Origin: an uncultured Fidelibacterota bacterium
GTDB taxonomy: Bacteria > Fidelibacterota > Marinisomatia > Marinisomatales > UBA1611
DNA: 21,147 nucleotides
Assembly: GCA_913040915.1 (NCBI GenBank)
Contig: CAJWHW010000032.1
Location: 1 to 21,147, forward strand
Reading direction: 5' to 3'
The notes beneath the pieces are model-generated. The model did no database searches, was not told the DNA's origin, and was given only the letters and a program-made list of their open reading frames with translations. The position numbers and the translations under genes were made by a program. Shown one piece after another: positions 4,931-14,646 of this stretch; position 1 is the stretch's first letter, and each line of letters starts with the position of its first letter.

Positions 4931-4960
4931 AAAAAAAAGGTGGCGAAATTTCGCGCCACC
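4931..4960 (-). terminator. Rho-independent terminator closing the TlpA / beta-barrel / selenoprotein unit
   Basis: Minus strand reads GGTGGCG-CGAAATTT-CGCCACC followed by T8, about 30 nt after the stop at 4992. Confidence 0.88.
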
Positions 4961-4991: not shown

Positions 4992-6485
4992 TTATTTTAC
5001 TAGAAGTGCTTTTTTTGTAGCTACTTGAGCTCCAGTCTGTACTCTGATAAAATACATACCTGTAGGTTGGTCTGTAGCATCCCAAAATAATGTATGAGAG
5101 CCTGCTTCCAACACTTTCTTTGACTGTACTACATCTACCTCCTTACCAATAGTATTATACACTGTTACTTGTGTTACAGCTTCTTTAGGCAGGGCAAAAG
5201 ATATCGTTAATTTGGGGTTGAAAGGATTTGGATATAATCGCTGAATCTGGATTGAATTAGGCATAACCCCTTCTACTAATTCCTTACTTTCAGAAAAGTT
5301 GACTCTGATCTCGCCAGCATTAGCACTGGCCACTACTGTATTGGTAAAATCATCAACAGTCAGTCCTGAAATATTAAATTCAATTTTTTGACGTGAATTT
5401 TTTCCTGTCATATCGTACCCGATAATAATGATTTTATTACCATTTTTAGCAATTTTTAGTGACCACCCTTCCGGCAGTAGAATTTGATTCAAATCAGTCA
5501 CAGTCAGATCAGTATTATCTATTTCAAATTGAAATCCGCTAATCTCATCAATGCTTTCTATTTTAGCTATGTTACCATTCTCAGATTGCAGAATGTTAAA
5601 TGTTCCATTGGAAAGTGCAGAAGTGCTCTGAGGGTTATTTCCTCCTAACAACATTTGAACAAGATTAATAACATCAATAATATTCACATTGTTATCACCA
5701 TTCATATTAGCTGCCTGGTATGCACAACTTTCTTGATTATTCTCAATTACAACATCTACTAAACTTAAAATATCCAATATATCAAAAATAAAATTACCAT
5801 TTTCATCCACACTGCCATCTATATTACCTCTTACCCAGACATTTGCATTATCACAATTATCACAAGCGTCTCCTAAACCATCCAAATCAATATCGGCTTG
5901 GCTAGGATTATAATCAACCGGACAATTATCACTCGGATCGTTAATATCATCCCCATCTGCATCCATGGGAACATTTTCAACTGCGGCATTTATCGCTGCC
6001 AAAATAGCAGCTTGATTAAAGCCTGCGCTAGTATATACAACTTCCATATTGTGATCTAGAACGACGTTATGCGGAATGGACCCCGTACCAAAAAGATTCC
6101 ATGCGGTGTTGTCTGCATCTCCATTGAGGATTGGATAAGTAATACCAAAAGATGATGACCAACCCGCGCATGAATAGGATGTATATTGAAAACCATGAGC
6201 AACCACTTGGACAGGTGCACCTGCGGCTTGGTAGTCTTGCCAAATTTGTTCGGTAATCGGAGCCTCCGATTGACATGGACCTCACCAAGAAGTAAAAAGC
6301 ATTAGCCAGGTTACTTTATAACTACCACCATTTATATCACCATTGCATTCCGTATATAAATCAAAATCTCCTGCCCCATTCGCACAAATCGGTTCTGTAA
6401 AGTTAGGAGATATATCGCCAACCTGTAGCGGTAATCCAAAAATACCACTGACAATTATTGTATGTATAATTAATGTTCTTAGCAT
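4992..6485 (-). CDS. Predicted secreted selenoprotein, 497 aa with Sec68 at TGA 6284..6282: signal peptide, thioredoxin/TlpA-AhpC-TSA-like domain (WUGPC), TSP type-3 repeats, dockerin-like domain and T9SS type-A-like C-terminal sorting domain
   Basis: ORF 6282..6485 and ORF 4992..6206 share a frame and only one TGA separates them. Read-through gives FTSW-U-GPCQSEAPITEQIWQDY...VQVVAHG...YPIL...SIPHNVVLD, a complete Trx fold. Later motifs are DADGD...DNCPVDYNPSQADIDLDGLGDACD, ANMNGDNNVNIIDVINLV and YPNPFNP...GMYFIRV...KKALLVK. Confidence 0.88.
6253..6274 (-). promoter_or_regulatory. Bacterial SECIS-like stem-loop just 3' of the in-frame UGA
   Basis: mRNA reads UGA-GGUCCAU-GU(C)AAUCGGA-GGC-UCCGAUU-AC: a 7-bp perfect stem plus 2 bp beyond a bulged C. 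The small apical loop starts with G, 17 nt after the UGA. Confidence 0.75.
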
Positions 6486-6541
6486 TTTTATTTTCTTTTA
6501 CAACTAGCCATATTAATAAAGAATTAATCAATTAAACAAAT

Positions 6542-8497
6542 TTAAAAAATCATGCTATAATTGAAACGTATACCATCATTATAAGGAGGAATTTGGCGGC
6601 AAATACCATTGCTGCAGAATAAACCACCCTGAATGGAGCCGTACATGATAGTTAATCGATGGGATGAACTTATATTATAGGATAATTCTATGGAAACCCA
6701 TCTCTGTTGTCCAAATTTTGGTGTTGATGTACGCTTTCTTTCACCGGTAAAATACTTAATATCTCCATATATCAAGGCTTCAAGAGGATTATAATATGGA
6801 TCTACAGTTTTGGGGCCATCAAATGCACTGGATTGGTCATGTACCAAGGTTAATGACCACTTTGATGCTTTACTAATAGTTAATGTTACCATACGGTTGA
6901 TTTGTAATCTTTCTCGGCCTCCGTCCAAATTATATAATTGTGTTTGGTAATCAACAATAAAAGAATCAGGGTTTTCAGAATCAATCAAATTCCATTTATC
7001 ATAAGTTGAACTGTAAAATGTAGCATTGCCACGGTTCACATTTTTTTTGGTTCTTTCCTGGTATTCAAAACTGAAACCCATGGCGTATCCATTATTAAAC
7101 GTATATGAAAGTTCTAAAGGATAAGTTATTGTTTTCGTTTCCTGCCAATACTTTGCTTCTACCTTATAGGGGTCAGAAAAACTTGTATCAAACACTTCCA
7201 TAGAATCAATTATCTCAAATTCATAGCCATAGGAATTAAATGTCGTTGTATCATACAGCCAATAAGAGTTAGTCACCATATCCGACTGAAACCCATCAAA
7301 ATAATTGATCATATATAGAACATCTTTATTATTCCCTCTTCCCAATCGGTAATAGAATCTACTGTCAATTAGAAAACCACTTAATTCAAAATAATTTTCC
7401 CAGAAAGGTAAACTGGATGGATCGCTACTAGGTAAAATATTATTCAATGCATTCCGCTCCCAGTCCGTAGATGTTAAAGACATCCAAGTATCATTTCGGC
7501 TTAAATGAGCATATTGCCCTAAAATATTTAAACCTAATGGCAGGGAACCAGTTAATTCGGCTTGGACGCCGCGTTCATCATTATAATTATATAAGTGAAC
7601 AGCACGCCCCATCAAAGTCATATTGGTTTCTCGACCAAGTGTTGGCATCATTTGAAACCCAATCCTATTACCATAATCGTCAGCATTTAAATCAGTATGA
7701 CTCCAATCAAAACTGTATTGTTTATATTCTGTCGTAAGTCCCCAGTTTCCAAAATATAAATTCAAATTACTGTACATACCATATCCACGCTTTAATGTAT
7801 CGTGGGCAACATCATTGTAGAAATCAGTTTTCTCAAATGATTGTTTATCTACGTATTCAAAGAAGAAATCCCAAGCTGTAAAAGATGCTGAACCGTAAAT
7901 ACCTTTTATTTTATGATTTACAAAAGCAGTTCCTTCTTCTTTTTTTTGATGCTCTTCATTAGAGTTCAGTTGTGTTAAACCAATAGAATAAGAATCAAAA
8001 TCATATTGAAGGTGATTTCCAAACATATTATGATTGTTATTAAAATATGGTAATCTATTATCATTCTCTCCTAAATCCCAAATATCCGCATTACCATTGA
8101 TGTGACTTAAGGTAAAGTCTCCCTTTGTATATCCTAAAAATAATCCTCGGGTACCGTTATCAAAATTTGTCATTTGATCATCAATTTGATTTAATACCAA
8201 ACCTCGTCCCCAGAATTCGTATAAGTCCCCTAATTTGATATTGAAATTTTCATCAGAATATTCTAATCGAAATTTTCTGATATCATTTGTTGTAAAACCT
8301 ATTTCTGGAGGATTGGAATATTCATATTGAACCCATGCAGAAAGATTTTTATAAAACATATTTATATCGAGTCTGTTTTCAGCAAAAGAATAAAAATCAT
8401 AACTATCTCCAAAACTGGAAATAATCGAACCATTATAATTAAAATCATTTGCGAATATTTTTCCGCAAATGAGAAACAGAATTATTATTTTTTTCAT
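6542..8497 (-). CDS. Outer-membrane beta-barrel protein, DUF6029-like, with a C-terminal GGLxCxxGxC motif
   Basis: Signal peptide and alternating aromatic beta-strands. N-terminal motif LGDLYEFWGRGLVL. C-terminus GGLFCSNGICRQIPP...IRFNYSMIF ends in Phe like a BAM beta-signal. The family name comes from recalled motifs, not an HMM search. Confidence 0.75.
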   Translation of the reverse strand: MKKIIILFLICGKIFANDFNYNGSIISSFGDSYDFYSFAENRLDINMFYKNLSAWVQYEYSNPPEIGFTTNDIRKFRLEYSDENFNIKLGDLYEFWGRGLVLNQIDDQMTNFDNGTRGLFLGYTKGDFTLSHINGNADIWDLGENDNRLPYFNNNHNMFGNHLQYDFDSYSIGLTQLNSNEEHQKKEEGTAFVNHKIKGIYGSASFTAWDFFFEYVDKQSFEKTDFYNDVAHDTLKRGYGMYSNLNLYFGNWGLTTEYKQYSFDWSHTDLNADDYGNRIGFQMMPTLGRETNMTLMGRAVHLYNYNDERGVQAELTGSLPLGLNILGQYAHLSRNDTWMSLTSTDWERNALNNILPSSDPSSLPFWENYFELSGFLIDSRFYYRLGRGNNKDVLYMINYFDGFQSDMVTNSYWLYDTTTFNSYGYEFEIIDSMEVFDTSFSDPYKVEAKYWQETKTITYPLELSYTFNNGYAMGFSFEYQERTKKNVNRGNATFYSSTYDKWNLIDSENPDSFIVDYQTQLYNLDGGRERLQINRMVTLTISKASKWSLTLVHDQSSAFDGPKTVDPYYNPLEALIYGDIKYFTGERKRTSTPKFGQQRWVSIELSYNISSSHRLTIMYGSIQGGLFCSNGICRQIPPYNDGIRFNYSMIF

Positions 8498-8500
8498 GAA

Positions 8501-9022
8501 TTAGGATTCAGACGATTTTGAATCCTTGAAACCAAGTATAACCTTGATCTGATGCTCGATCTCAACTTCCTCACCGGGTGAGTACCCCTGATGCCTCCAT
8601 TTGATACTACCATCTTTATCAACAAGTATAAGAGTTGGCATTATAAGACCGTTCAGCTTTTTAGCTATTTGCTGATTTGGATCCAACCCCACATAAAATT
8701 TATGATTTTGACTATTAATATAGGATTTTACTTTTCCTATACTTCTGGGTGTATCCTGATTGATCATAAGAACCTTAAATCCATTTTCAGAATATTTTTG
8801 ATGGTACCTGTCTAAATGCTTCATAACCTTTTTGCAAGGCTTACACCATGTTGCCCAAAAATCGATAAGTAGCGGACCATCTTGAAGAAGTTCATTGATT
8901 GAAGTCTTTTTTCCATTCAATAATTTAATTTTCAAATCAGGAACAGTGCGGCCTGCTACACCTTCATTAGCAATCAGCGTGCTAAAGAGAAAAATGAATA
9001 AAATGAGTGCGTTTTTTTTCAT
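8501..9022 (-). CDS. Exported TlpA/ResA-family thiol-disulfide oxidoreductase (WCKPC)
   Basis: DFWATWCKPC, cis-Pro loop IMPTLILVDKDG and WRHQGY. The start is moved from 9067 to ATG 9022 because MKKNALILFIFLFSTLIA is a clean signal peptide. Confidence 0.9.
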   Translation of the reverse strand: MKKNALILFIFLFSTLIANEGVAGRTVPDLKIKLLNGKKTSINELLQDGPLLIDFWATWCKPCKKVMKHLDRYHQKYSENGFKVLMINQDTPRSIGKVKSYINSQNHKFYVGLDPNQQIAKKLNGLIMPTLILVDKDGSIKWRHQGYSPGEEVEIEHQIKVILGFKDSKSSES

Positions 9023-9171
9023 GATTATAAATTTTCTATATAAGGGTAAATTGGTAATCAATATCAATTATCTAACGATATACTAGATGTTTTCACTCAA
9101 CTTTTAAAGTGCTAACATTAAAGAAAAATAATCTCTTTATTGTACTTCCAAAGTTATTAGATAATGTAAAA

Positions 9172-10494
9172 TCAGAGAAGCGGATCTAAAAATGACTTCA
9201 GTTCATTTTCATTAACAAATTTCAGACTGACATTGCTCAAAAATTCAACTTCATTTACGGGAATAATAAATTCATAAACAGCCTGAATTTCAACAGTCTC
9301 CATGGCAATTTGCATCGACCATCCCCCCACTGTGAAATCTATAAGCTGTGAAAATTGATGCTGAGGAACATAAAGTACTTTATCGCTCGTTCTGGTGTGC
9401 CAATATTTTTCCGGTGTATCCGCAACTACAATTAGAGTACTTCGGTTTTGGTCAAATATACGTATGACGGGAATAGTTCTAAATGAACCAGACTTGATCG
9501 ATTCAACATGCTTTTGCGGGAAATTGAATGAATTTCTGTCAAAATAAAAAATAGTTAGTGTCCCGTTTTGCTCTAATCCCGTATAAGGCAATGTGGATAA
9601 CATATCCTTGATAATTTTATCTTTTAATTTATAAACCACTGGAAACCGGACTGTCATATATAAATCATCATCTTCATGATATTCAAATTCTGGCCTTTGC
9701 AATTCTACGTCATAAGGGTTAGTAAGCAGTTGGTCCAATACAGAAGATAACAAAGTAGTGTTACCTGCATTTTCAGGGTTATCTTCAAGTTTACGATCTA
9801 CATCAAAATCCATGGTCCATTCACCAGAATCAAATCTGGGGACTTCTTTTTTAACCCGTTTACCTTTTTCTCTGACCCTAGCACCCAAAAGAATATCCAT
9901 GGATGCTTCCAATTCTGCTATCTGATTGTCTAGACTTGAAACAACTTTATCAGTTTCTAAAGATACAGGATGGCGTTTTTTCTCAATTTTTGGTGCTGTA
10001 AAGGCTGGATAAGGGGAAACTTTTATCTTAGGAGGCTCTGGGAAATAAGGTGCTATCATCTCCTGTGTTGCTGAACCTACGGCCTTATTCAGAGCAGGAA
10101 TCTGTGAATAAACTTCGGTAATATTTCTAATAGCCAATTCGTCCCAGGTAGCAACATCTACTACCTGAATGGATACATGGATTTTATCTAATTGCCGGTT
10201 GTATTTCCCTAAAACTAGCAGATTTCGAGAACCTCGGGGCTGTTGTAACATCAAGGCACGGTCATTCATAATAATTTCAAGGTCATCTTTACTTTTTAAA
10301 CGGACACCATAATTATTTTTTAATTCACGAGATACCATGTCTGTTAATCCAGCTGCTATCCATTCTACTGCTGGATCATTTTGAATGTTATCAAAAGGCA
10401 GTAAATACACATAGGTATAGGGGTCTCGTGCCGAGATAATAGAAAGAAATAGTGAAATCGTAAGGAATTTGCGCATCCGGTGGTTTGGTTTCAT
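9172..10494 (-). CDS. Exported hypothetical protein with an N-terminal TolB-N/FlgO/CsgG-like domain
   Basis: Signal peptide MRKFLTISLFLSIISA (alternative start 10476). LLPFDN...EWIAAGLTDMVSREL...LVLGKY...IHVSIQVVDVAT is typical of this fold. The C-terminal region is not recognised. Confidence 0.6.
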   Translation of the reverse strand: MKPNHRMRKFLTISLFLSIISARDPYTYVYLLPFDNIQNDPAVEWIAAGLTDMVSRELKNNYGVRLKSKDDLEIIMNDRALMLQQPRGSRNLLVLGKYNRQLDKIHVSIQVVDVATWDELAIRNITEVYSQIPALNKAVGSATQEMIAPYFPEPPKIKVSPYPAFTAPKIEKKRHPVSLETDKVVSSLDNQIAELEASMDILLGARVREKGKRVKKEVPRFDSGEWTMDFDVDRKLEDNPENAGNTTLLSSVLDQLLTNPYDVELQRPEFEYHEDDDLYMTVRFPVVYKLKDKIIKDMLSTLPYTGLEQNGTLTIFYFDRNSFNFPQKHVESIKSGSFRTIPVIRIFDQNRSTLIVVADTPEKYWHTRTSDKVLYVPQHQFSQLIDFTVGGWSMQIAMETVEIQAVYEFIIPVNEVEFLSNVSLKFVNENELKSFLDPLL

Positions 10495-10552: not shown

Positions 10553-12226
10553 CTACACATTTTTCATCATTTTAGCCCAAGAATCACGAAGTGATACAGC
10601 ACGATTTATAACAAGCTTTTGATCTGTCGAACTCTTGGTATCCTTTACAAAATAGCCATTTCGTTCAAATTGATAGGTTATATTTTTTGGATTTGCCAGA
10701 CTAGGCTCCAGTTTAGCTTCTGGCAGTATTTTACAGGAACTCGGATTCAGATTAGGAATGAATTCGCCATCTTCTTCTGGGTTTTCTTTTACAAAAAGAC
10801 GATCATAAAGCCTTACTTCTGCTTCAACGGCACGAGTGGCCGAGACCCAGTGAATAGTTCCTCTAACCTTCCTCCCATCAGGAGATGAACCACCTTTTGT
10901 TTCAGGGTCGTATGTACAATGGATTTCAACAATGTTCCCTGAGTCATCCTTAACAATATCAGTACAGGTAATATAATAAGCATATCGAAGGCGTACTTCT
11001 CTACCAGGGCCTAATCGAAAAAATTTCCTGGGTGGATCTTCCATGAAATCAGATTGCTCAATATACAGTTCCTTTGAAAAGGGGATTTCTCTTATACCCG
11101 CATCTGGATCTTCTGGATTATTGATTGCTTCAAGCATTTCAGTTTTATTTTCAGGGTAATTTTTAATCACGACTTTCAACGGATCCAATACACCCATAAC
11201 TCGTGGCGCCCGCTTATTCAAATCTTCCCTGAGCGCATTTTCTAATCTTGTAACATCAATGATTGAATCCCTTTTTGTTACCCCCACATCTTCAGCAAAA
11301 TTTCGAATGGATTCTGGTGTGTATCCCCGTCGGCGCAAACCTGAAATAGTTGGCATTCTCGGATCGTCCCAGCCATCAACATAATTGTCATCTACCAGTT
11401 GTTTCAATTTTCGTTTGCTCATGACTGTAAAACTCAGATTAAGGCGAGCAAACTCAATTTGCTGAGGATGATATGTATCCAACTGATTTAAATACCAGTC
11501 ATATAACAGACGATGATCTTCAAACTCAAGCGTGCAAACAGAGTGAGTAATTCTTTCGATGGAATCTTCCAATCCATGGGCCCAATCATACATTGGATAG
11601 ATGCACCATTTATCTCCAGTTCTGTGGTGGCTAGCATGTAGTATTCTATACATAACGGGGTCCCGCATATTCAAATTAGGATGGGCCATATCAATCTTAG
11701 CACGAAGTACTTTTTCACCGTTTTCAAATTCACCATTTTTCATCCGGGTAAACAAATCGATGTTTTCATCAATGGATCGAGTACGGAAAGGACTTTCTTC
11801 CCCCGGTTCTGTTAGCGAGCCTCGGGTATTTCTTATTTCATCTCCCGATAATTCACAGACATAAGCCATTCCTTCTTTGACGAGTTGCATTGCAAAACTA
11901 TAAAATTGATCAAAATAATCGGATGCATAGAACAATCTTTCTTCCCAGTCAAAGCCCAGCCATTTCACATCTTCAATGATGGATTTGACATATTCTTTTT
12001 CTTCTTTCACCGGATTCGTATCATCAAATCTCAGGTTACACTTCCCCCTGTTTTTTTCCGCTATACCGAAGTTAAGACAGATGGATTTTGCATGGCCGAT
12101 ATGGAGATAGCCATTAGGCTCTGGCGGGAAACGGGTATGAACACGCCCGTCCCATTTTCCAGACACATTATCATCATCAATAATTTTTTGGATAAAATTT
12201 ATCGGTTCTTTTTGGATATCAATCAT
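10553..12226 (-). CDS. glnS: Glutamine--tRNA ligase
   Basis: [49 protein letters not shown] and QFERNGYF motifs; 557 aa. Confidence 0.98.
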
Positions 12227-12228
12227 AA

Positions 12229-13629
12229 TTAATATTGATCTAGTGCTTTATTTAATCTTTTTAAAACAGTCTCTTTTCCCAACAATCCCATCATAGCAAA
12301 AAGTGACGGGCCACTAATAGTTCCAGAAATAGAAAACCGGATTGGCTTCATTACTTTTCCAAAACCCAGACTATTGTTTTCTATAAATGATTTCAATACT
12401 ATTTCTAACTGTTCTTCATTCCAGGTGTCTAATTCTTCAAGAATATTTTTAACAGAAGTAATGATTTTACCTGTATCATCTTTCCAGATTGTTAACAATT
12501 CATTTTCATTAAAATTAATAGGATCATGAAAAAAAGAGTTAGCCTGATCCATGAGCTCCTTTAAAGATTTAGATCTGATTTTCAATAGCTCAATAACTTC
12601 CATACAAAAAGAATCTGATTCCGTATTTCCCCAATCAAAGTTGATATTATGAATTCCTGCTAAAATTTCTTCATTTCGCTGGTTCATCATATGCTGTCCA
12701 GAGATCCAATTTAACTTTTTCTCATCAAAAACAGCACTCTTCTTATGTACTTTAGTTAAATCAAATTTATCAATGATTTGGTCCAAACTCATAACTTCTT
12801 CTTCCGTACCTGGATTCCAGCCAAGTAAAGATAAGTAGTTTAGTAAAGCATCCGACTGATATCCTTCATCCCGATAGGTCTGAACACCGGTCGCACCATG
12901 CCGTTTGCTCAGAAGTTTTTTGTCCTTTCCTAAAATCATTGGTAAATGTGCAAATTCAGGGACATTCCAATCAAGGGCCTCATAAATCAAGATTTGTTTT
13001 GGTGTATTTGAAATATGGTCTTCACCACGGATAATATGAGTAATACCCATTTCATGATCATCAACGACATTGGTTAAATTATACACAGGACTTCCATCAG
13101 AACGAGCGATAATAAAATCATCCAATTCAGTATATGCTACAGTGATTTTCCCATAAACAGTATCGATAAAAGAAGTTTCTTTTCCTTCAGGAATTTTTAA
13201 TCGGATTGTAAAAGGTGTACCTCTATCTAATTCAGGTTTTATTTCATGTTCTGATCTATCTCTCCAAATGCCTGGATAGGAATAAGACCCGGTATCTTCA
13301 CGGATTTTCTCCAGCTCTTCAGGGGTTGCAAAACACTGGTAAGCATTTCCTGACTTAAGTAGCTTTGTAATGCAGCTTTGGTAAGCATCAATTCGTCTGG
13401 ATTGATAAACTAAATCTTCGTCCCAATTCAACCCTAGCCATACCATTGACTCACAAATCTGATCAATAAATTCCTGTTTAGACCTCTCAATGTCTGTGTC
13501 TTCAATTCGAATTAAAAATTGACCAGAATTCTTTCTGGCAAATAGGTAATTGAATAAAGCAGTTCGTGCACCACCAACATGAAGTTGTCCTGTGGGACTA
13601 GGGGCAAATCTGACACGCGGTTTCATCAA
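12229..13629 (-). CDS. gltX: Glutamate--tRNA ligase
   Basis: [35 protein letters not shown] and LSKRHGA motifs, with a C-terminal anticodon-binding domain. Confidence 0.97.
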
Positions 13630-14542: not shown

Positions 14543-14557
14543 TGATATAATCTATTG

Positions 14558-14646
14558 CGGAGGGGGAGGGATTCGAACCCCCGAAGGGCGTAAACCCTTG
14601 CTGGTTTTCAAGACCAGTGCATTCAGCCAGACTCTGCCACCCCTCC
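14558..14646 (-). tRNA. tRNA-Ser(TGA); CCA not encoded
   Basis: GGAGGGG acceptor stem, CTGGT-CT-TGA-AA-ACCAG anticodon arm, long variable arm, GGTTCGAATCC and a G discriminator. Confidence 0.96.

Follow-up and report, generated by a model that had tools for sequence, protein, structure and literature searches.

We analysed a 21,147-nucleotide stretch of DNA (hereafter the window) from an uncultured Fidelibacterota bacterium (GenBank assembly GCA_913040915.1, contig CAJWHW010000032.1, positions 1 to 21,147), in which two neighboring open reading frames (ORFs) on the minus strand very probably represent a single gene, at 4992..6485, encoding a 497-residue selenoprotein. Its in-frame UGA would be decoded as selenocysteine (Sec, U) under the direction of a selenocysteine insertion sequence (SECIS), and the product would be exported and act as an oxidoreductase at the cell surface. 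On the evidence below, the TGA very probably specifies selenocysteine in an exported thiol-disulfide oxidoreductase of a marine Marinimicrobia (SAR406) bacterium.

Gene continuity and conservation of the TGA codon

Read directly, the minus strand starts with an ATG at 6485 and continues through 67 sense codons to a TGA at 6284..6282, in the context ACT TCT TGG TGA GGT CCA TGT CAA TCG GAG GCT CCG. The frame stays open beyond this codon, with zero further stops, up to a TAA at 4992-4994. Translation with table 11 yields a 67-amino acid (aa) ORF (6282..6485, ATG start) and a 404-aa ORF (4992..6206, GTG start), which lie in one frame. With the TGA read as U, a single 497-residue product results (MLRTL...TSWUGPCQSEAP...SIPHN...ALLVK, then the stop), in which U68 is part of an S-W-U-G-P-C motif. 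The 429 codons downstream of the TGA are intact and conserved, and contain no frameshifts. The gene and its parts are as follows (AF2, AlphaFold2; pLDDT, predicted local distance difference test; TSP, thrombospondin; T9SS, type IX secretion system):

4992..6485, minus strand: complete predicted selenoprotein coding sequence, 497 aa, U68, TAA at 4992-4994; homologues cross the junction between the two ORFs in one frame
6282..6284, minus strand: putative UGA selenocysteine codon (U68) at the first (nucleophilic) position of W-U-G-P-C; the TGA column is conserved in homologues
6252..6275, minus strand: SECIS-like hairpin, a core stem with an outer extension after a bulged C, based on comparative covariation
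6429..6485, minus strand: signal-peptide-like segment, residues 1 to ~19, recognized by eye (basic residue and hydrophobic run before QVGD); pLDDT <70
5982..6428, minus strand: TlpA/ResA/DsbE-like thioredoxin-fold domain, residues ~20-168, from Pfam, PDB profile, AF2 and Foldseek
5844..5975, minus strand: TSP type-3-like Asp-rich Cys segment DNCPVDYNPSQADIDLDGLGDACDNCD; TSP_3 in 19/41 relatives, pLDDT 53-58, part of the segment called 'Unknown_3' in the literature
5643..5843, minus strand: dockerin-like helix pair with DxNxDxxxxxxD-type loops (GNIDGSVDENG...; NMNGDNNVNIIDVINLVQMLL); Dockerin_1 in 5/41 relatives, helices present in the model
5271..5612, minus strand: beta-sandwich, residues 292-405, strands in AF2 model residues 133-246
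5007..5237, minus strand: T9SS C-terminal sorting domain, residues 417-493, PF18962 at 42.6 bits (cut-off 27; E 7.6e-11)

A preliminary description of this DNA, made from its letters alone, had proposed one 497-residue Sec protein that gene callers split in two. Every sequence detail it quoted (the strand reading, the ORFs and their shared frame) is indeed present, and its claim is supported by the single frame, by the conserved TGA and by the Sec genes of the genome. Its suggested target for mass spectrometry, the peptide TSWUGPCQSEAP, is not tryptic: the read-through protein contains no Lys or Arg between K57 and R229.

We searched in six frames with residues 1-168 through the source genome and 60 relatives from the same genus, family and order. 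Matches were found in 59 of these 61 genomes, and nearly all strong ones (identity 36-74%) carry exactly one TGA. For the 60 top-scoring places, of which 20 came as search loci and 40 were fetched separately, we then identified the column of the active site. A [W/Y]-[U/C]-x-x-C motif is present in 58 gene copies; 50, our own included, have TGA in the U/C column and eight have TGT or TGC. The first Cys/Sec has been lost altogether in three further copies (L053, L054 and L059). Because TGA occupies the exact column in 50 of the 58 motif-bearing copies, the coincidence of codon and motif is more than chance. Homologues with Cys or TGA at this position had been predicted in the preliminary description, and both kinds exist. 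That the TGA might be peculiar to one strain is refuted by the 49 other TGA copies, which are spread over 26 genomes in four GTDB families (f1, f5, f6 and f8) and are conserved as protein on both flanks.

Protein identity on either side of the codon is about 30-75% among the TGA homologues. In their alignment W67, U/C68, C71, E74 and A75 are at least 90% conserved, and C34, G98, C106, W109 and P138 are invariant. Residues 69-93, which lie between the TGA and the GTG start of the downstream ORF, are likewise conserved as protein, and the continuity of the gene is established. The commonest motif among the relatives is WUPSC, WUGGC also occurs, and the window itself has WUGPC. A maximum-likelihood tree of 56 copies, each with at least 130 aligned residues, contains 47 Sec rows and six scattered Cys rows, with well-supported branches that force at least three changes. 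Since the Cys rows are few and scattered, Sec is the prevailing state in these sequences and no recent accident; it may well be the ancestral state too.

The matches listed, which represent paralogues, number as many as six to eight in a single relative's genome. The genome of the window has one copy. In three relatives, clusters of three to five copies lie within ~10 kb (G003:C1 ~261.8-271.6 kb, G004:C37 ~99.7-110.7 kb and G030:C8 ~14.8-25.8 kb), and the G003 cluster mixes Sec and Cys forms side by side. This clustering, together with the mixed forms in G003, suggests local duplication plus repeated Sec/Cys exchange.

We also compared the codon with assemblies from other sequencing runs. A contig from DNA run X1 (record 4, 6223-6600) covers it and shows no other letter, and contigs from RNA libraries of other studies (X10 record 10, 6131-6376; X17 record 12, 6170-6320) leave it unchanged. 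Because DNA-run and RNA-library contigs alike span the codon with TGA at 6282..6284, we conclude that it is no assembly error, and the earlier call for a check on sequencing error is answered in favor of the TGA. Parts of the window lack contig cover in some runs, which has no evidential value.

The SECIS-like hairpin and the selenocysteine machinery

The core of the hairpin, AAUCGGA-GGC-UCCGAUU at 6271..6255, starts 10 nucleotides (nt) 3' of the UGA. It forms a 7-bp stem with a GGC apical loop, and the distance from the UGA to the loop is 17 nt; in many relatives an outer helix (UGU/ACA) follows after a bulged C (6275..6252). For bacterial SECIS (bSECIS) elements, the accessible part of PMC13188914 gives an apical loop of 3-9 nt with a G within its first two positions, a stem of 4-16 bp, a distance of 16-37 nt from the UGA and a minimum free energy (MFE) of at most -7.5 kcal/mol. 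The loop of our gene (GGC, or A-GGC-U, which fits N1-G-[G/U]-N-N2), its stem and its spacing fall within the geometry given there (PMC13188914).

The hairpin signal rests on comparative data rather than on the stability of a single sequence. Over nt +9..+42 the mean MFE is -7.5 (sd 2.3) kcal/mol in the 50 Sec forms versus -2.7 in the eight Cys forms, in which the hairpin is lost. RNAalifold keeps four inner pairs across the 50 TGA forms, two of them with compensatory changes. When we scored a 10-pair helix over the 50 Sec sequences, 81.7% of the cells were paired versus 72.7% after shuffling (reached in 0/500 shuffles), and pairing dropped to 33-46% with the partner strand slid by 1-3 columns. 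Cells changed on both sides numbered 42 versus 14.9 expected, and the covariation score was 0.278 versus 0.141 (0/500 shuffles in either case). Pair 20-30 occurs as CG in 34 sequences, UA in 8 and GC in 3, and pair 19-31 as GC in 15, UA in 13 and GU in 3. The helix is kept despite changes in the encoded peptide, as CUGAG-UCU-CUCAG in E-S-Q forms and as GGGGAG...CUCCCC in G-E-A-P-L forms. Covariation of the hairpin is thus established. A scan of the window at Rfam gathering thresholds returned three tRNAs only and no SECIS family, a result that is uninformative because bacterial SECIS elements of such kind are not expected in Rfam.

Short contigs of run X1 (records 5-8, window 6229-6298) are 90-95% identical to the window around the active site and the hairpin only, and diverge outside this stretch. 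Relatives or paralogues that occur together therefore apparently share a UGA-SECIS segment conserved in its nucleotide sequence.

The source genome (G000; 1.86 Mb, 71 contigs, 85% complete) contains selA (492.1 bits), selB (323.6 bits) and selD (385.6 bits), all above their NCBIfam cut-offs, with selA and selB adjacent on contig C16. The selD gene is itself a Sec gene, with an in-frame TGA at SHGSGUACK (C6:66560-67486, minus strand). Two peroxiredoxins (Prx) with a T-P-G-U motif and a SelW-like protein with C-S-M-U are also encoded (C35:9633-10290, minus strand, and C28:367-750, minus strand), one Prx adjoining the SelW-like gene on C35. These three genes appear to be unannotated. No member of the CMD/AhpD-like family turned up in the source genome. 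Neighboring Prx/SelW pairs have been described in Global Ocean Sampling (GOS) reads of unassigned origin, according to the accessible part of PMC2398784, and the table available from a 2016 survey places SAR406 single-cell genomes among 'orphan SelD' organisms (PMC5029168). With selA, selB, a Sec-containing selD and further Sec genes, the lineage studied here has the full Sec trait.

Clear tRNA-Sec genes (58-70 bits, 90-93 nt) are present in 23 of 30 relatives, among them the same-genus genome G001 (63 bits). An automatic tally puts 25/31 genomes over the tRNA-Sec cut-off, a count probably slightly inflated by some 47-48-bit matches in relatives that are tRNA-Ser. The genome uses the standard code, since TGA is the stop of 215/790 ORFs of at least 300 aa (27%); it also ends 4/14 complete ORFs of the window. 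We considered codes 4 and 25 and rejected both on stop-codon usage.

Domain architecture, proposed export and competing explanations

The signal-like segment of the protein is followed by a QVGD sequence that is conserved in all homologues. The catalytic domain behind it contains the UGPC motif, a conserved Glu74-x-Pro76, the cis-Pro138 and the invariant Cys34 and Cys106. A profile of 56 family members compared with the PDB detects ResA (4nmu, 7e-15) and also DipZ-C, DsbE and StoA. The AF2 model of residues 1-168 has a pLDDT of 91.8, and its top 20 Foldseek matches are DsbE, ResA or TlpA-like proteins (E 5e-12 to 1e-9, target-normalised TM 0.78-0.85), the best being DsbE of Chlorobium tepidum (3gl3; E 5e-12, TMt 0.78-0.84). 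U68 aligns with the first Cys of the ResA WCKPC motif, and E74 and P76 align with the E-x-P of ResA CEKEMP. We conclude that the domain is a TlpA/ResA/DsbE-like extracytoplasmic oxidoreductase. The preliminary description had placed the UGA exactly at the nucleophilic Cys and a cis-Pro loop (SIPHN) downstream of it; the ResA alignment agrees with the former, and P138, which is invariant, is the cis-Pro of the latter. Its label 'thioredoxin' can be refined, the domain being of the TlpA/ResA/DsbE-like ('Prx-like') type and not a classical thioredoxin.

We rejected a classical thioredoxin on the sub-threshold Pfam matches (Thioredoxin covers residues 63-87 only, at 19.5 bits, below 23.5, and Thioredoxin_8 is likewise sub-threshold), on the TlpA-type insertions and on the relatives, which mostly have WUPSC. 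The W-U-G-P-C of the window is letter for letter the thioredoxin WCGPC motif with U for C, but the protein differs in its signal-like segment and in these insertions, and the cytoplasmic WCGPC thioredoxin of the genome is a separate gene on C31. A peroxiredoxin function was also rejected, the motif being S-W-U-G-P-C and not T-x-x-C/U as in the TPGU Sec-Prx of the same genome. AhpC/TSA peroxiredoxins, including the Sec-Prx (TxxU), share the thioredoxin-fold superfamily and a weak PF00578 match with our protein; they differ in having PxxxTxxC/U where the window has WUxxC, and ResA/DsbE proteins outrank Prx in the fold search. With ResA, TlpA, CcmG(DsbE) and StoA, the protein shares the fold, the W-C-x-x-C-x-x-E-x-P context, the cis-Pro and a predicted extracytoplasmic location. 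In contrast to them, it has Sec in place of the first Cys, an extra invariant pair (C34/C106) and ~330 additional C-terminal residues, and it lacks a membrane anchor. The known members of this group serve cytochrome c or copper-centre maturation, and nothing ties the window protein to either.

The TSP3-like and dockerin-like parts together comprise residues 171-281, and the TSP3-like segment contains invariant D/N/C columns. The window's own copy gives no TSP_3 match at E<=0.01 and no dockerin or TSP3 Pfam match at E<=0.1; Dockerin_1 is precomputed on the homologues P0014 and P0058. The top Foldseek match of the modelled beta-sandwich is a cohesin+FN3 construct (2w1n, E 3e-8), with a TM of only 0.18-0.24 and in a two-domain match. 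In a VIA comparison it aligns 110 residues with the scaffoldin complex 4fl4_L (Z 8.3, root mean square deviation 3.9). The predicted sandwich is thus possibly cohesin-like, a borderline assignment. The T9SS sorting domain is present in 41/41 family members, and pieces of the SprA translocon are found in the genome at the ends of contigs C14 and C25, both over the cut-off.

We propose that the UGA at 6284..6282 is decoded as selenocysteine, with the hairpin recruiting SelB together with Sec-tRNA(Sec), and we infer that Sec is actually inserted at this codon. The product would then consist, in order, of a cleavable signal peptide, the TlpA/ResA/DsbE-like domain, a Ca-binding TSP3-like segment, the dockerin-like part, the beta-sandwich and the T9SS sorting domain. 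Its redox center, U68-G-P-C71, would form a selenylsulfide/selenol-thiol couple. As to the route of export, we infer that the Sec translocon would export the protein and that the T9SS would then move it across the outer membrane, for surface display or release. There it may act as a thiol-disulfide oxidoreductase on extracellular or periplasmic disulfides. Selenium may make it more reactive and protect it from being over-oxidized irreversibly in oxic seawater.

Several observations weigh against this proposal. The assembly support for the TGA comes from contigs and not from raw reads; some DNA may be present in the RNA libraries, and X1 could be the sample from which the window itself was assembled. 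No tRNA-Sec (selC, anticodon UCA) was found in the 85%-complete source genome with the Rfam model or with ARAGORN; the best match to the tRNA-Sec model, at 14557-14646 (minus strand), is a long-arm tRNA-Ser with anticodon UGA (46.3 bits against a cut-off of 47). ARAGORN finds only 29 tRNA genes in this genome, and we attribute the missing tRNA-Sec to the incomplete assembly. Of the Sec genes sought on the advice of the preliminary description, selA, selB and selD are thus present, whereas selC was seen in the same-genus G001 and not in G000. The MFE of our own hairpin is -7.1 kcal/mol (nt +9..+42), slightly short of the -7.5 criterion, a comparison that is approximate because this interval does not reproduce the exact bSECISearch stretch (PMC13188914). 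As a single sequence, the 86-nt region is no stabler than its shuffles (z -0.28). Two of five covariation measures do not rise above shuffles (double-change pairs, 55/500; further pair types, 317/500), the conserved E-A-P codons force part of the hairpin conservation, and kinship among the sequences inflates the shuffle tests. Pfam support for the single sequence is marginal, with AhpC-TSA (PF00578) at 27.4 bits against a cut-off of 26 and Redoxin (PF08534) at 22.3 bits, below its cut-off of 26.6. The best PorV match in the genome has 131.6 bits, below the cut-off of 250.

We weighed these points together with other explanations of the same DNA. The public gene calls describe two genes, one for a 67-aa peptide that the TGA truly terminates and one for a 404-aa T9SS cargo starting at the GTG at 6206, and this genome does use TGA as an ordinary stop. 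Such a split would, however, cut the thioredoxin fold between beta1 and the active-site helix, and it runs counter to the protein-level conservation of residues 69-93 and to a TGA column that is fixed over 30-75% divergence, with Cys in 8 copies; we regard it as highly improbable. Just as hard to believe is a selenium-free read-through of the UGA, be it as Trp (in a code 4-like manner), as Cys or by near-cognate suppression, that would give a full-length non-selenoprotein. The six full-coverage database homologues that we examined carry W, and the failure to find tRNA-Sec in the source genome would also fit, but the TGA that ends 27% of long ORFs speaks against genome-wide reassignment. In addition, a Trp at the catalytic Cys site would kill the redox center, and a hairpin found in TGA forms only, together with selA, selB and selD, is what Sec decoding predicts. 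We give next to no weight to a pseudogene or to an assembly or sequencing error, in which a Cys codon would have turned into a nonsense codon. One base changed would turn TGT or TGC into TGA, and the source is metagenome-assembled; yet 49 other copies from 26 genomes have the TGA, contigs from the runs of other studies keep it, and the gene has an intact downstream part of 429 codons and no frameshifts or extra stops.

A different case is a real selenoprotein with a periplasmic role, that of a ResA/TlpA-type reductase which CcdA/DsbD would supply, with the sorting domain being vestigial or serving late export alone. The best structural matches are reductases of the periplasm or otherwise extracytoplasmic, a homologue of the CcdA/DsbD-type membrane protein (DsbD_TM) is encoded elsewhere in the genome, the same gene string includes a Cys-type TlpA-like gene, and no extracellular electron donor is known. 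Against this stand the sorting domain in all 41 members, the presence of SprA and the dockerin- and TSP3-like modules, which are generally typical of extracellular proteins. We consider a periplasmic role unlikely, if well worth bearing in mind, and favor the surface-exported selenoprotein.

Known relatives, gene neighborhood and possible biological role

Prx-like selenoproteins with a UxxC motif, the central finding here, are not new. 'Prx-like' selenoproteins with UxxC were described from the Sargasso Sea, as seen in the available part of PMC1088965, and Zhang and Gladyshev (2008) reported the selenoprotein family and its fusion architecture from ocean metagenomes, as far as the accessible parts of that paper go (PMC2398784, Fig. 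S1D, Dataset S1). Reads in Dataset S1 carry FTSWUPSCQVEAP and FATWUGPCQSEAP together with fused domains, and the paper gives pfam08534 at 'e-value>0.001' for Prx-like 3 (PMC2398784). The available text of a 2026 review includes a 'Prx-like thiol:disulfide oxidoreductase' among the high-confidence predictions. The word 'hidden' in the preliminary description therefore holds for gene callers but not for the selenoprotein literature (PMC2398784).

Our protein and the 2008 family have in common the UxxC context and a fused DNCP...NP.Q.D.D.DG.GDACD.CDN...NIIDV..LV segment (Fig. S1D, PMC2398784). The window sequence DNCPVDYNPSQADIDLDGLGDACDNCDNANVWVRGNIDGS...NIIDVINLVQMLL matches the printed columns of Fig. 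S1D by eye, not by a computed alignment (PMC2398784). Dataset S1 reads are near-identical to loci that we fetched, and JCVI_READ_1018099 starts like the translation of L024. The portions of the 2008 paper available to us differ from our analysis in presenting single reads without an organism, in naming the fused part 'Unknown_3' and in listing members under two subfamilies, and these portions recognize neither a T9SS sorting domain nor a gene neighborhood (PMC2398784). The window copy has WUGPC and is ~50-55% identical to relatives of the 2008 reads.

Most of the 120 listed database homologues are ORFs of ~320-430 aa, with a query coverage of 63-85%, and one entry bears the name 'T9SS type A sorting domain-containing protein'. 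Six full-coverage entries that we examined (P0013, P0014, P0027, P0034, P0035 and P0038) carry W at the Sec site (WWPSC/WWGSC). These are most likely code-4 gene calls, gene callers having probably chosen code 4 on short contigs. Such Trp-bearing entries could mislead family alignments. Eight related loci from a single-protein search are all metagenome-assembled or single-cell records, and their lineage is Marinimicrobia or Neomarinimicrobiota where stated and 'uncultured bacterium' otherwise.

In the literature on the family, BSepDB entries and recent supplements not being covered, we found no earlier assignment to Neomarinimicrobiota/SAR406, no T9SS domain, no identity for 'Unknown_3' and no neighborhood. 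The accessible literature tying Sec to Marinimicrobia yielded nothing beyond the orphan-SelD table (PMC5029168). The main texts of the BSepDB paper and of the 2026 review, in the parts available, make no mention of Marinimicrobia, SAR406 or secretion, though their supplements or database may list the gene. What the present analysis adds is the Neomarinimicrobiota lineage, an identification of the fused domains, a likely export to the surface and the conservation of neighboring genes.

The selenoprotein gene closes a row of three genes on one strand, behind a TlpA-like gene and a DUF6029 gene. The features next to it are:

6542..8497, minus strand: DUF6029 protein, 651 aa, PF19494 1.5e-20; ends 56 nt before the selenoprotein start
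8501..9067, minus strand: Cys-type TlpA-like redoxin, 188 aa, FWATWCKPCKK, signal-like N-terminus, Redoxin 9e-23, AhpC-TSA 2e-21; 3 nt upstream of the DUF6029 gene
4931..4960, minus strand: terminator-like GC hairpin GGTGGCG...CGCCACC followed by T8, by direct reading, 32 nt past the selenoprotein stop

Given its signal-like N-terminus and its C-terminal ...NYSMIF, the DUF6029 protein is probably an outer-membrane beta-barrel. Among 19 relatives' loci with flanks of ~1.5 kb, DUF6029 lies upstream of the homologue in 9. A Reg_prop/Y_Y_Y/SpoIIE regulator follows downstream of the selenoprotein gene, and it is also downstream in 11/19 relatives' loci. The DUF6029, TlpA-like and selenoprotein genes may form a functional unit. 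Farther along the minus strand, the window contains a 440-aa ORF with a signal-like N-terminus and no Pfam match at E<=1e-5 (9172-10494). Beyond it lie two adjacent genes for class-I E/Q-type aminoacyl-tRNA synthetases (10553-13629), one with GlnRS-type C-terminal domains and the other with a GluRS-type anticodon-binding domain.

In public collections, nearly all entries of this family are either truncated 'T9SS sorting domain' proteins or have a Trp in the catalytic site. Because of this annotation, standard pipelines see neither the redox domain nor the selenium use of a globally abundant ocean phylum. The assignment of 'Unknown_3' to TSP3-like, dockerin-like and T9SS sorting modules now provides a testable candidate for an extracellular selenoenzyme. 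We tentatively suggest, at somewhat less than even chances, that this enzyme is exported by the T9SS and displayed at the surface, that it carries Ca-binding, dockerin-like and possibly cohesin-like modules, and that it belongs to a family expanded in SAR406/Neomarinimicrobiota, within a conserved gene string with a periplasmic Cys-TlpA and a DUF6029 outer-membrane barrel. If so, abundant ocean bacteria would spend selenium on extracellular redox chemistry, acting for example on disulfides, peroxides or reduced sulfur on particles, and the dockerin/cohesin-like pair might assemble enzymes on the cell surface.

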